Origin: a virus
Lineage: Duplodnaviria > Heunggongvirae > Uroviricota > Caudoviricetes
IMG/VR virus record: IMGVR_UViG_2872180393_000003
Coordinates: 1-12,621 of that record
Direction: 5' to 3' (one strand)
Length of the DNA: 12,621 nt
The position numbers were made by a program, and so were the translations under genes. The notes beneath the pieces were generated by a model. It was given only the letters and a program-made list of their open reading frames with translations. It was not told where the DNA came from and ran no database searches. Every line of letters starts with the position of its first letter. Position 1 is the first letter of the stretch. Below, piece by piece: positions 1,917 through 12,621 of the stretch.

Positions 1917-1980
1917 TGAGGTAGCCTGAGTTTAACGGACACTCCTTCCTGAAATAGAATGGCATCAGAAGGAGCTAATA

Positions 1981-2283
1981 ATGAGCAGAAAAACCCAACG
2001 TTACTCTAAAGAGTTCAAAGCCGAAGCTGTCAGAACGGTTCTTGAAAATCAACTTTCGATCAGTGAAGGCGCTTCCCGATTATCCCTTCCTGAAGGCACT
2101 TTAGGACAATGGGTTACCGCCGCCAGAAAAGGGCTCGGTACTCCTGGTTCCCGCACGGTGGCTGAACTGGAATCTGAAATTCTGCAACTGCGTAAGGCGT
2201 TAAATGAAGCTCGCCTTGAGCGAGATATATTAAAAAAAGCAACAGCGTATTTTGCACAGGAGTCGCTGAAAAATACGCGTTAA
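1981..2283 (+). CDS. IS600 OrfA (HTH transposase N-terminal part)
   Basis: 100-aa ORF MSRKTQRYSKEFKAEAVRTV..., IS3-family OrfA-like with a leucine-zipper-like C-terminus. The A7G slippery run at 2232-2239 lies near its 3' end. Confidence 0.9.
   Translation: MSRKTQRYSKEFKAEAVRTVLENQLSISEGASRLSLPEGTLGQWVTAARKGLGTPGSRTVAELESEILQLRKALNEARLERDILKKATAYFAQESLKNTR
2232..2239 (+). promoter_or_regulatory. programmed -1 ribosomal frameshift site (A AAA AAA G) of IS600
   Basis: Seven A followed by G in the orfA frame, in the orfA/orfB overlap window. IS3-family elements use A6-7G slippery sites. Confidence 0.6.
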
Positions 2284-2318
2284 TCGAACAATGGCGACAA
2301 CAATTTCCCATTGAAGCG

Positions 2319-3137
2319 ATGTGTCAGGTATTTGGTGTATCCAGGAGCGGTTATTACAACTGGGTACAGCATGAACCCTCAGACAGAAAACAAAGTGATG
2401 AGCGGCTAAAACTGGAGATTAAGGTGGCACATATCCGCACTCGCGAAACATATGGAACCCGGCGGCTCCAGACGGAGCTGGCAGAGAATGGCATCATCGT
2501 TGGTCGTGACCGACTGGCACGTCTTCGTAAGGAGCTAAGGCTACGCTGTAAGCAGAAACGCAAGTTCAGAGCGACTACGAACCCGAACCACAATCTGCCA
2601 GTTGCGCCAAATCTGCTGAACCAGACGTTCGCTCCTACAGCACCAAATCAGGTCTGGGTGGCGGACCTGACGTATGTTGCCACACAGGAGGGATGGTTGT
2701 ACCTAGCTGGCATCAAAGATGTTTATACGTGCGAAATTGTCGGCTACGCCATGGGAGAGCGCATGACAAAAGAGCTGACAGGTAAAGCCCTGTTTATGGC
2801 GCTCAGGAGCCAGCGCCCACCTGCCGGGCTAATCCACCACTCTGATCGAGGTTCACAGTACTGCGCATACGATTACCGGGTCATACAGGAGCAGTTTGGT
2901 CTGAAAACATCAATGTCGCGTAAAGGTAACTGTTACGACAACGCTCCGATGGAAAGCTTCTGGGGAACGCTGAAAAATGAGAGCCTGAGCCACTATCGTT
3001 TTAATAACCGGGATGAAGCCATCTCAGTAATACGGGAATACATTGAGATTTTCTACAATCGTCAGCGTCGTCACTCTCGTCTGGGGAATATCTCCCCGGC
3101 AGCCTTCAGGGAAAAATATCATCAGATGGCTGCTTAA
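2319..3137 (+). CDS. IS600 OrfB (DDE transposase catalytic part; expected to be made as an OrfAB fusion by -1 frameshifting)
   Basis: 272-aa ORF in the -1 frame relative to orfA. Translating the -1 frame from the A-run gives ...KYALIEQWRQQFPIEAMCQVFGV..., joining directly onto OrfB. DDE-type motifs are present (WVADLTYV, HSDRGSQY, CYDNAPMESFW). Confidence 0.9.
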   Translation: MCQVFGVSRSGYYNWVQHEPSDRKQSDERLKLEIKVAHIRTRETYGTRRLQTELAENGIIVGRDRLARLRKELRLRCKQKRKFRATTNPNHNLPVAPNLLNQTFAPTAPNQVWVADLTYVATQEGWLYLAGIKDVYTCEIVGYAMGERMTKELTGKALFMALRSQRPPAGLIHHSDRGSQYCAYDYRVIQEQFGLKTSMSRKGNCYDNAPMESFWGTLKNESLSHYRFNNRDEAISVIREYIEIFYNRQRRHSRLGNISPAAFREKYHQMAA

Positions 3138-3180
3138 AAAAAGAACAAATGGTAGTGTCCGCTATTGCCAGTACACCTCA

Positions 3181-3816
3181 GATTTAGGTCTTCAGTTATG
3201 CGACAGGCATGGCAAGCCAGCAAGCCGTGATCAGGTTGAGCGGATGCTTCAGGTTTTTGTGAAAGAGGGGATGATCTCCATTGATGGAGAGAAGCAAAAA
3301 GGTCGTGTGATCACCATCACAAATTACCATGAATATGCTCAAAAAATGGACAATTCACCCGCACATGAAGCCGCACAAACAACCGCACATCATGAACAAG
3401 AAGGTATTAACAAGAATATAAATAATATCTCTAATACTGACGTATTAGAGAGTGCCACAGCAGACAAAAAGTCTGACAAGAAAAAACCTTCCGTTAGCTG
3501 TCAGGATGTTGTCGATGCTTACCACGAAATCCTTCCTGAAGCGCCAAGAATCCGCGCACTGAATGACAAGCGTAAAAACCAGATCCGAACGTTCTGGCGC
3601 AAAGCCGGAGTGATAACCCGCCAGCTTGACGGGCATGGGTTCACGATGCAGGACTGGAGAAATTATTTGAGCTACGTAGGCGAAAATTGCCGATGGATGT
3701 TCGAAGAGCGCCCAAACCATCAGCGCGGAACCGTCTGGCACAAAAAGGGATTTGATTACCTGCTTAACGATAATACCTACCTGAAAGTTCGTGAGGGTGA
3801 ACACGATGACCGATAA
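3181..3816 (+). pseudogene. phage replication initiation protein (O-like / helicase-loader partner), N-terminally truncated by IS600
   Basis: The frame is continuous with the IS600 right end and has no native start. It sits immediately upstream of the DnaB-like helicase, overlapping it (stop 3814-3816, helicase ATG 3806), as in P22-type replication modules. The specific family is not verified. Confidence 0.55.
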
Positions 3817-11003: not shown

Positions 11004-11045
11004 TATCATGCCGTTAAGATGTTGCCATCCGTGGCAATCATGCCG

Positions 11046-11422
11046 CTAACGTGTGACCGCATTCAAAATGTTGTCTGCGATTGACTCTTCTTTGTGGCAT
11101 TGCACCACCAGAGCGTCATACAGCGGCTTAACAGTGCGTGACCATGTGGGTTGGGTGAGGTTTGGGATTAGCATCGTTACAGCGCGATATGCTGCACTTG
11201 CTGGCATCCTTGAATAGCCGACACCTTTGCATCTTCCGCACTCTTTCTCGACAACTCTCCCCCACTGCTCTGTTTTGGCTATATCAACTGCCAGACCTGT
11301 TCCGTGGCAATCTCTGCATCTTGCGCCCGGCGTCGCGGCACTACGGCAATAATCCGCATAAGCGAATGTTGCGAGCACTTGCAGTACCTTTGCCTTAGTA
11401 TTTCCTTCGAGCTTTGCCACAC
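11046..11422 (-). pseudogene. Q: late antiterminator Q (lambda type), C-terminal ~125 codons only; N-terminus replaced by the IS600 end
   Basis: ...AKLEGNTKAKVLQVLATFAYADYCRSAATPGARCRDCHGTGLAVDIAKTEQWGRVVEKECGRCKGVGYSRMPASAAYRAVTMLIPNLTQPTWSRTVKPLYDALVVQCHKEESIADNILNAVTR matches the lambda Q C-terminal zinc-finger region as I recall it. The frame runs into the IS600 right end at 11423 with only a TTG start inside the IS. Confidence 0.75.
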
Positions 11423-11464
11423 TGAGGTGTACTGGCAATAGCGGACACTACCATTTGTTCTTTT

Positions 11465-12283
11465 TTAAGCAGCCATCTGATGATATTTTTCCCTGAAGGC
11501 TGCCGGGGAGATATTCCCCAGACGAGAGTGACGACGCTGACGATTGTAGAAAATCTCAATGTATTCCCGTATTACTGAGATGGCTTCATCCCGGTTATTA
11601 AAACGATAGTGGCTCAGGCTCTCATTTTTCAGCGTTCCCCAGAAGCTTTCCATCGGAGCGTTGTCGTAACAGTTACCTTTACGCGACATTGATGTTTTCA
11701 GACCAAACTGCTCCTGTATGACCCGGTAATCGTATACGCAGTACTGTGAACCTCGATCAGAGTGGTGGATTAGCCCGGCAGGTGGGCGCTGGCTCCTGAG
11801 CGCCATAAACAGGGCTTTACCTGTCAGCTCTTTTGTCATTCGCTCTCCCATGGCGTAGCCGACAATTTCGCACGTATAAACATCTTTGATGCCAGCGAGG
11901 TACAACCATCCCTCCTGTGTGGCAACATACGTCAGGTCCGCCACCCAGACCTGATTTGGTGCTGTAGGAGCGAACGTCTGGTTCAGCAGATTTGGCGCAA
12001 CTGGCAGATTGTGGTTCGGGTTCGTAGTCGCTCTGAACTTGCGTTTCTGCTTACAGCGTAGCCTTAGCTCCTTACGAAGACGTGCCAGTCGGTCACGACC
12101 AACGATGATGCCATTCTCTGCCAGCTCCGTCTGGAGCCGCCGGGTTCCATATGTTTCGCGAGTGCGGATATGTGCCACCTTAATCTCCAGTTTTAGCCGC
12201 TCATCACTTTGTTTTCTGTCTGAGGGTTCATGCTGTACCCGGTTGTAATAACCGCTCCTGGATACACCAAATACCTGACACAT
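11465..12283 (-). CDS. IS600 OrfB (copy 2; W15R and A183V relative to copy 1)
   Basis: 272-aa ORF identical to copy 1 OrfB except for two substitutions. Confidence 0.9.
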   Translation of the reverse strand: MCQVFGVSRSGYYNRVQHEPSDRKQSDERLKLEIKVAHIRTRETYGTRRLQTELAENGIIVGRDRLARLRKELRLRCKQKRKFRATTNPNHNLPVAPNLLNQTFAPTAPNQVWVADLTYVATQEGWLYLAGIKDVYTCEIVGYAMGERMTKELTGKALFMALRSQRPPAGLIHHSDRGSQYCVYDYRVIQEQFGLKTSMSRKGNCYDNAPMESFWGTLKNESLSHYRFNNRDEAISVIREYIEIFYNRQRRHSRLGNISPAAFREKYHQMAA

Positions 12284-12318
12284 CGCTTCAATGGGAAATT
12301 GTTGTCGCCATTGTTCGA

Positions 12319-12621
12319 TTAACGCGTATTTTTCAGCGACTCCTGTGCAAAATACGCTGTTGCTTTTTTTAATATATCTCGCTCAAGGCGAGCTTCATTT
12401 AACGCCTTACGCAGTTGCAGAATTTCAGATTCCAGTTCAGCCACCGTGCGGGAACCAGGAGTACCGAGCCCTTTTCTGGCGGCGGTAACCCATTGTCCTA
12501 AAGTGCCTTCAGGAAGGGATAATCGGGAAGCGCCTTCACTGATCGAAAGTTGATTTTCAAGAACCGTTCTGACAGCTTCGGCTTTGAACTCTTTAGAGTA
12601 ACGTTGGGTTTTTCTGCTCAT
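12319..12621 (-). CDS. IS600 OrfA (copy 2); start codon is the last triplet of the window
   Basis: 100-aa ORF identical to copy 1 OrfA. The T7 run at 12364-12370 is the complement of the frameshift site. Confidence 0.9.
   Translation of the reverse strand: MSRKTQRYSKEFKAEAVRTVLENQLSISEGASRLSLPEGTLGQWVTAARKGLGTPGSRTVAELESEILQLRKALNEARLERDILKKATAYFAQESLKNTR

Follow-up and report, generated by a model that had tools for sequence, protein, structure and literature searches.

The window analyzed here, a stretch of 12,621 nucleotides (IMG/VR record IMGVR_UViG_2872180393_000003, positions 1 to 12,621), is part of the Shigella boydii genome CP026846.1. It probably holds the decayed remains of a lambdoid prophage, located at the mlrA (yehV) attachment site and shaped by at least four separate events, in which the two inverted copies of the insertion sequence (IS) IS600 around an 8.2-kb phage block are the scars of two unrelated events. 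In the proposed history, (i) the element ISSfl3 would have inserted just upstream of the integrase gene (int); (ii) a ~6.7-kb segment (P22AR, ant, rusA, ninH, Q, the lysis genes, terS and the 5′ part of terL) would have inverted at GGGAGCCGAAA microhomologies, without an IS, resulting in a convergent gene layout; (iii) a later loss would have extended from inside ISSfl3 through the early-left region to codon 83 of the replication gene O, leaving a single IS600 (copy 1), with homologous recombination between two direct IS600 copies as the likeliest route; and (iv) an IS600 already residing in ycaM would have recombined with an oppositely oriented IS600 in the antiterminator gene Q, creating the copy 2 junction and linking the prophage remnant to ycaM-ycaN-pflAB.

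IS600 copies and their junctions

Within the window, positions 1981-3181 pair with 11422-12621 as an inverted repeat, and a repeat of such length cannot be due to chance. Copy 1 (1917-3180, plus strand) is complete, with 1264 bp, orfA at 1981-2283, an A7G slippery site at 2232, orfB at 2319-3137 and the ends TGAGGT...ACCTCA. Copy 2 (11423-12621, minus strand) is cut by the window end. The full copy extends 64 bp further, to 12685, as read from a 20.5-kb locus of CP026846.1 around the lysozyme gene (L003, where the copy lies at 7614-8876); the right flank beyond the window was read from the same locus. The lysozyme protein had its exact match on this contig alone, and proteins unique to the contig carry the name Shigella boydii at NCBI. 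In both copies orfA has 100 codons and orfB 272. An exact alignment over ~1200 nt revealed four substitutions (2361, 2705, 2762 and 2866) and an A-run indel at 3136, giving an identity of 99.6%, not a rounded 100%. The A-run behind the orfB stop is six A long in copy 2 (11461-11466) and seven in copy 1 (3136-3142). The nucleotide sites 2361 and 2866 correspond to two OrfB substitutions in copy 2, W15R, common to other S. boydii copies, and A183V, which is private.

The assignment to IS600, an element of the IS3 family (IS3 group) first described in Shigella, is based on several features. The length of ~1.26 kb, the imperfect 5′-TG...CA-3′ terminal repeats and the −1 frame relation of orfA and orfB, with the slippery site AAAAAAAG at 2232 in copy 1, are all characteristic of the IS3 family. 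The terminal inverted repeats start with TGAGGTAGCC... on the left (IRL) and, as reverse complement, with TGAGGTGTAC... on the right (IRR), with 23 of the 40 terminal positions identical. The gene calls carried the Pfam domains HTH_Tnp_1 (orfA) and rve (orfB), and RefSeq copies are labeled "programmed frameshift". Both copies were 99.2-99.8% identical to E. coli and Shigella copies annotated as "IS3-like element IS600 family transposase".

The original prediction had described an inverted IS600 pair around an 8.2-kb phage block, with a headless O and a headless Q at the right ends of the two elements. Coordinates, anatomy and sequence identity agreed with this description. The enclosed block (3181-11422) consists of 8242 bp of lambdoid prophage, and O and Q each lack their first 83 codons. 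Open reading frames (ORFs) continue from both genes into the IS600 ends (3043..3816 and 11046..11438), a read-through that carries no meaning by itself.

Neither copy is a simple insertion, which would leave a 3-bp target duplication within contiguous target DNA. In IS orientation, copy 1 is flanked by GGG on the left and GAT on the right, as had been predicted, and copy 2 by AAT and GTG. The AAT past the left end of copy 2 thus matches neither GAT nor GGG. A target duplication is missing at both copies, and the four flanks do not cross-match in either orientation. The sequences joined by the elements are ISSfl3 and truncated O (O′) at copy 1, and ycaM and truncated Q (Q′) at copy 2. Among other IS600 copies from Shigella and E. 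coli loci, 10 of 17 had a target duplication and 7 had none; duplication-less IS600 scars are therefore common. This baseline included CP026765.1 and CP026836.1, the only other genomes returned for OrfB of copy 1. The flanks also lack the reciprocal pattern (a..b and b..a) expected after an exchange between copy 1 and copy 2. The single-nucleotide patterns of the two copies gave no usable evidence for mosaicism: copy 1 had one private change, and copy 2 three private changes plus one common to other S. boydii copies.

On its left, copy 1 follows the remnant of an unrelated IS66 family element, also in line with the prediction. The remnant consists of the 3′ terminal 164 bp of ISSfl3 (1751..1914, minus strand), with the end of tnpC, a DDE_Tnp_IS66_C domain and a terminal repeat starting with GTAAGCG. 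It was 97.8-100% identical to ISSfl3 copies, and all alignments ended at 1914. Copy 1 joins this break to codon 84 of O. Lost between the two are the remaining part of ISSfl3, the genes of the early-left region, the immunity region and the 5′ part of O. Judged from this one junction and from comparison with relatives, copy 1 is interpreted as the likely scar of a deletion from inside ISSfl3 to codon 83 of O.

Beyond copy 2 the sequence continues with ...CAGAAAAT, the 3′ part of ycaM, followed by ycaN, ycaK, pflA, pflB and focA. E. coli has an uninterrupted ycaM at this position; here the gene is broken exactly at the IS end. On the K-12 map, ycaM (947,229-948,659) and mlrA (2,214,866-2,215,597) are 1.27 Mb apart, and the breakpoints lie ~642 and ~624 kb from dif (1,590,750). 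Near-symmetry about dif is typical of tolerated inversions. In the CP026846.1 locus, the mlrA side has the K-12 orientation and the pfl-ycaM side is reversed, so that the junction is of the inversion type. The IS600 orientations, minus at ycaM and plus in Q when set in K-12 orientation, are consistent with a homologous inversion. A single junction (ycaM 3′-IS600-Q′) was read for this putative inversion, and its reciprocal was not retrieved.

Orientation switch inside terL and order of events

The early genes of the block (O′, dnaB-like, ninB, dam and ninE) run rightward and the late genes (Q′, the tRNA genes, holin, lysozyme, Rz, terS and truncated terL, terL′) leftward. This convergent arrangement, already noted in the original prediction, was confirmed by a map made from Pfam, tRNA and Rfam searches. 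The native order was visible in the E. coli prophages of FDAARGOS_943 and RMDEC465, where ninB, dam and ninE are followed by a toxin-antitoxin pair on the opposite strand, P22AR, ant, rusA and ninH, and then by Q, tRNA-Asn, tRNA-Thr, holin, lysozyme, Rz, terS and terL. The leftward toxin-antitoxin pair is thus native, and the orientation switch is not at ~6460-6500.

Base-by-base comparison with the collinear RMDEC465 prophage placed the switch at an 11-bp microhomology inside terL (7331..7341). By BLAST, window positions 5960-7341 were 99.6% identical to the region from dam to the toxin-antitoxin pair of RMDEC465, and 7331-8378 were 99.0% identical to its terL 5′ part and terS, in the opposite relative orientation. 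The 11-mer is present, inverted, at both parental sites, one intergenic, upstream of the toxin gene, and one inside terL, 6.7 kb apart in RMDEC465. No IS end is found at this junction. Together, the sequences on both sides bear the signature of short-homology recombination, with inversion of everything between P22AR and codon 129 of terL. The case resembles known short-homology (illegitimate) recombination in having an 11-bp identity exactly at the breakpoint, inverted at the two parental sites; it differs in that the reciprocal junction was not seen, so that a true reciprocal inversion is not proven. The junction was carried by CP026845.1, CP119446.1, LPTQ01000137.1 and SRR23531017, and by none of 5426 complete E. 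coli genomes. Its 156-codon chimeric terL′ product was recorded on four contigs.

The S. boydii sister genome CP026845.1 dates this junction. It matches all 8242 bp of the block in collinear order, with 99.7% identity, and has the same terL junction, with O (294 aa) and Q (207 aa) intact and free of IS600. Because of this combination, the microhomology inversion preceded the arrival of IS600 junctions at O and Q. The inverted segment of CP026845.1 continues through ninH, rusA, ybcO, ant and P22AR, exactly the genes between the two 11-mers, and the genome retains the immunity region that is missing from the window. The chimeric ORF made of the ycaM 3′ part and the left end of IS600 is likewise listed for the CP026845.1 contig, which indicates that the IS600 in ycaM is older than the Q junction.

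The original prediction had counted at least two rearrangements between this layout and a normal lambdoid map, and more than two were found to be necessary. It had named IS600-mediated inversion or deletion as the simplest explanation. This stands for the left and the right junctions, where IS600 is present at a deletion and at an inversion-type joint, respectively; it does not stand for the convergent gene order, which comes from the older terL microhomology.

The related genomes carry scars of their own. In CP026845.1, mlrA is cut at the window equivalent of position 470 by an IS600 that abuts the upstream region of P22AR. Beside int it has a complete ISSfl3, which borders on a truncated ycaI; in K-12 only ~17 kb separate ycaI from ycaM, and the area from ycaI to ycaM looks like a rearrangement hotspot. 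S. boydii CP026836.1 has a related prophage in the un-inverted, native order (toxin-antitoxin pair, P22AR, ant). It carries IS600 insertions of its own, located in the helicase gene and beside ISSfl3.

Alternative explanations

The structure is reproducible. CP119446.1, an independent complete assembly, was 99.95-99.99% identical over 20.5 kb, with all five junctions, including two orphan nucleotides (GG, 1915..1916) at the left end of copy 1, and with the 8.2-kb block in the same orientation as in the window. The draft contigs of GCA_001906135.1 end in IS600 copies, as expected, and are consistent with this. One further similar place was reported and not inspected. The structure is not an assembly artefact. 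Such an artefact, caused by the repeats, or two independent simple IS600 insertions into O and Q, can be given practically no probability. IS600 often does insert simply, as the duplications at 10 of the 17 other copies illustrate, and this is all that speaks for the second version. Against it, the far sides of the copies carry ISSfl3 and ycaM, instead of the O and Q 5′ parts with matching duplications, a finding that excludes the scenario of two simple insertions; the artefact is contradicted by the same five junctions in CP119446.1 at ≥99.95% identity.

The idea that IS600 produced the whole layout, convergent order included, with the inverted copies as partners that may still flip the block, is highly improbable. 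Inverted 1.2-kb repeats with 99.6% identity, 8.2 kb apart and each lacking a target duplication, speak for it. However, the orientation switch at 7331-7341 lies on an 11-bp microhomology devoid of an IS end, and is found in CP026845.1 alongside intact O and Q. The flanks (GGG..GAT and AAT..GTG) do not form an a..b and b..a pair, and the outer flanks are ISSfl3 and ycaM. We rejected copies 1 and 2 as recombination partners, since the outer flank of copy 2 belongs to a locus 1.27 Mb away on the K-12 map and a reciprocal flank pattern is lacking. Flipping of the block between the copies is possible in principle and is unsupported here: a flipped 8.2-kb block was not seen in any assembly, CP119446.1 being the second complete assembly checked, with its block orientation unchanged. 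That the pair acts as a live RecA-dependent flip-flop is extremely doubtful. If it did, the flip-flop would switch which truncated module (O′-helicase-nin or Q′-tRNA-lysis) adjoins mlrA and which ycaN, leading to subpopulations with different read-through expression. A site-specific invertible segment of the Hin/Gin/Cin type was also rejected, as no resolvase or invertase domain was found among the ORFs of the block and its borders are whole IS600 copies.

The probability of a composite transposon, in which the IS600 pair and the 8.2-kb block would have inserted as one unit, is negligible. Two copies of one IS do flank a cargo segment, yet its outer flanks, GGG to the left and ATT to the right on the plus strand of the window, are no duplication and derive from loci separated by 1.27 Mb on the K-12 map. 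The sister strain has an in-situ prophage collinear with the cargo, and the sequences to the left of the block (ISSfl3 remnant, int, mlrA) represent the attachment end of the prophage itself.

Two variants keep most of the proposed history. In one of them, events iii and iv would each be a one-step intramolecular transposition of IS600, in which the transposase would connect an IS end with a target in the same chromosome and so yield a deletion or inversion with duplication of the IS, without homologous recombination between copies already present. Both mechanisms would lead to the same final structures, the greater age of the ycaM IS600 would fit a donor role, and the orphan GG at copy 1 hints at an irregular, transposase-linked joint. 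IS3 family elements (IS911, IS2, IS3) move by copy-out/paste-in through a circular intermediate, a route that, on its own, yields neither deletions nor inversions next to the element. We consider this variant unlikely, with some chance of being right. In the other, the 7331-7341 junction would come from recombination between two similar, oppositely oriented prophages and not from an inversion within one. The missing reciprocal junction would agree with such an origin, as would an IS600 that, in CP026845.1, cuts the inverted segment at 64 bp upstream of P22AR, so that the predicted second breakpoint is missed by ~40 bp. Both sides of the junction, however, map to one collinear RMDEC465 prophage with 99.0-99.6% identity, 6.7 kb apart, and the CP026845.1 segment holds exactly the genes between the two 11-mers, making the two-prophage origin quite unlikely.

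The history of at least four events, with homologous recombination at both IS600 junctions, is itself weakened by several observations. The GG at 1915-1916 stems from neither ISSfl3 nor IS600 and is kept in CP119446.1. In CP026845.1 the uninterrupted ISSfl3 reads ...CAGCAG up to the break and continues with ACTGTAG, with no GG. A clean insertion of IS600 into ISSfl3 with subsequent homologous IS-IS recombination would not account for these two bases, and we found no explanation for them. The term inversion is based on one junction of each pair, and K-12 coordinates are only a proxy for the heavily rearranged S. boydii chromosome. Further, no reciprocal product was found, neither ycaM 5′-IS600, IS600-Q 5′ and O 5′, nor a terL 3′ part joined to the upstream region of P22AR. 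The strings predicted for these joints were GTACACCTCAAATAGCCATTAACGGGCG (IS600 right end, AAT and ycaM 5′), GGCTACCTCACACCACGGTATTTCCCCG (IS600 left end, CAC and Q 5′), GACAGCAGCTGATTGAGGTAGCC (O 5′, GAT and IS600 left end) and CCTCTTTACGGGAGCCGAAAGGCTCGCCGG (reciprocal microhomology joint). The last, as an exact pattern, had no match in a species-representative genome set, which probably lacks this strain. A protein database search with the N-terminal 344 aa of YcaM returned only an IS1-truncated 331-aa form and unrelated fragments. Predicted chimeras (YcaM 1-344 with an IS600 tail, in the 7-A and 6-A versions, and Q 1-83 with a tail) were not in the protein collection; they were modeled on E. 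coli and may be off by a residue. A search with the C-terminal 410 aa of TerL gave no cluster of S. boydii terL 3′ fragments. The exact P22AR protein of CP026845.1 was present on 6 contigs, none of them CP026846.1. Judging by these sequence searches, the segment from P22AR to the Q 5′ part may have been deleted or altered in the lineage of the window. The original prediction had suggested looking for the O and Q 5′ parts elsewhere: the reciprocal joints did not turn up, and both genes are intact in the sister genome. What the sequences demonstrate directly is every junction, the precedence of event ii over events iii and iv, and the recurrence of the structure; how the recombination took place, and what became of the lost halves, we infer.

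Gene content and comparison with known systems

At the left end, the window starts with mlrA (1..702, minus strand), in a 233-codon version whose 5′ end comes from the prophage and which carries MlrA_C, MlrA_helical and MerR_1 domains; this is the chromosomal attachment side. The neighboring integrase gene (723..1671, minus strand) is a pseudogene, with two ORFs matching Phage_integrase and a frameshift near 1063-1070, judged against the 270-aa (270-codon) call in CP026845.1. It is also N-terminally short, with only ~90 residues before the catalytic domain, apparently due to ISSfl3 directly upstream at 1751.

To the right of copy 1, O′ (3181..3816, plus strand) keeps codons 84-294 of the 294-codon replication initiator; these 211 codons match the C-terminal end of the intact CP026845.1 protein with 100% identity. 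Homologs of O′ are Sf6 gp43 and the O proteins encoded by mEpX2 and HK633, whose partner is a DnaB-like helicase. The module is similar to the O-DnaB replication module of the Sf6/HK620 type, with O′ ~71% identical to Sf6 gp43. Direct repeats (CACCCGCACAT and CAACCGCACAT, ATGAACAAGAA and ATTAACAAGAA) were found inside O′ (3346-3416, plus strand), where Sf6 gp43 has putative origin repeats, and the replication origin may have survived the truncation. Next on the plus strand come a DnaB-like replicative helicase of 478 aa (3806..5242; DnaB, DnaB_C) and ninB, dam (an N6-adenine methyltransferase) and ninE (5319..6456; NinB, Dam, NinE). With 478 codons, the helicase is shorter here than in CP119446.1 and the draft GCA_001906135.1 (490 codons each), reflecting a 36-bp tandem duplication polymorphism (4863-4906).

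The toxin-antitoxin pair (6498..7185, minus strand) consists of a helix-turn-helix antitoxin (6498-6806; HTH_3) and a Gp49/RelE-type toxin (6796-7185; Gp49), and has the same position in the nin region and the same orientation as in the intact E. coli prophages (L002, L004). A full-length gene for an isrK-like Hfq-binding small RNA (7207..7283, plus strand) was recognized by Rfam (RF01394, 70.6 bits vs. a gathering score of 50) just upstream of the inversion junction. The antirepressor genes P22AR and ant come next in intact relatives and are separated from it here by the inversion.

The late genes are all on the minus strand. The chimeric terL′ (7248..7718) joins the first 129 codons of the large terminase (7332-7718) to 27 foreign codons; its homology to the intact TerL of the E. 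coli prophage L004 stops at 7331, and the members of its cluster are named TerL. The late-gene block (7721..10513) contains terS (7721-8278), an 85-aa ORF, a KilA-N/ORF11CD3 protein (8634-9131), Rz (9337-9804), the lysozyme RrrD (9801-10298) and a holin (10298-10513), identified by Pfam or gene calls. The KilA-N/ORF11CD3 gene and the 85-codon ORF (8379-9126) stand in place of a Rha family gene of RMDEC465 and FDAARGOS_943, a mosaic module swap. Downstream of Q are tRNA-Thr(TGT) and tRNA-Asn(GTT) (10630..10785), detected with ARAGORN and the Rfam tRNA model. Q′ (11046..11422; Antiterm) keeps codons 84-207 of 207, i.e., 124 codons, as aligned with the intact Q of the E. coli prophage L002; in CP026845.1 the gene is uninterrupted. 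With int frameshifted, the immunity region absent, O, Q and terL truncated, and the late block inverted, the remnant is not a functional lambdoid prophage. Its nin, toxin-antitoxin, Q, tRNA, lysis and terS-terL modules are 97-99.6% identical at the DNA level to those of the RMDEC465 and FDAARGOS_943 prophages, from which it differs in the inverted P22AR-to-terL 5′ segment, the missing P22AR-to-Q 5′ part, and the truncated or frameshifted O, Q, terL and int.

McDonough and Butterton reportedly described, in 1999, a defective Stx prophage of S. dysenteriae type 1 in which IS600 adjoins the Q-lysis region. That remnant (PMC7819885) is, like the one described here, a Shigella lambdoid prophage bordered or interrupted by IS600 and not expected to be inducible. 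The present one differs in its mlrA site, its species and the absence of stx: a cargo of the stx type between Q′ and holin was considered and rejected, with two tRNA genes only in this interval. Compared with typical IS600, the two copies differ in lacking the 3-bp duplication, and copy 2 also in W15R and A183V of OrfB and in having one A fewer.

Rearrangement rates in Shigella are exceptionally high and linked to IS elements (PMC8072062), and 42 of 42 inversions found in S. dysenteriae 1 genomes were IS-associated (PMC7819885). The locus resembles such cases (PMC8072062; PMC7819885) in having IS copies at the junctions of a probable large inversion and a probable prophage deletion, with partners approximately symmetric about dif on the K-12 map. 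The literature searched contained no report of this ycaM junction with the mlrA prophage, and a search for the accession numbers was likewise without result; the junction differs from the known cases in instance, not in kind. All components and processes are already well known, and IS600 scars are ordinary for Shigella genomes.

Beyond bookkeeping, the finding matters little. For annotation, O′, Q′, terL′ and int are best marked as pseudogenes, and the IS600 copies are synteny breakpoints useful for typing S. boydii lineages. The locus would also serve as a worked example of layered prophage decay in Shigella, from a microhomology inversion through an IS-linked deletion to an IS-linked inversion on the chromosome scale, and it illustrates that a segment can be bracketed by two IS copies which did not act together in one event.

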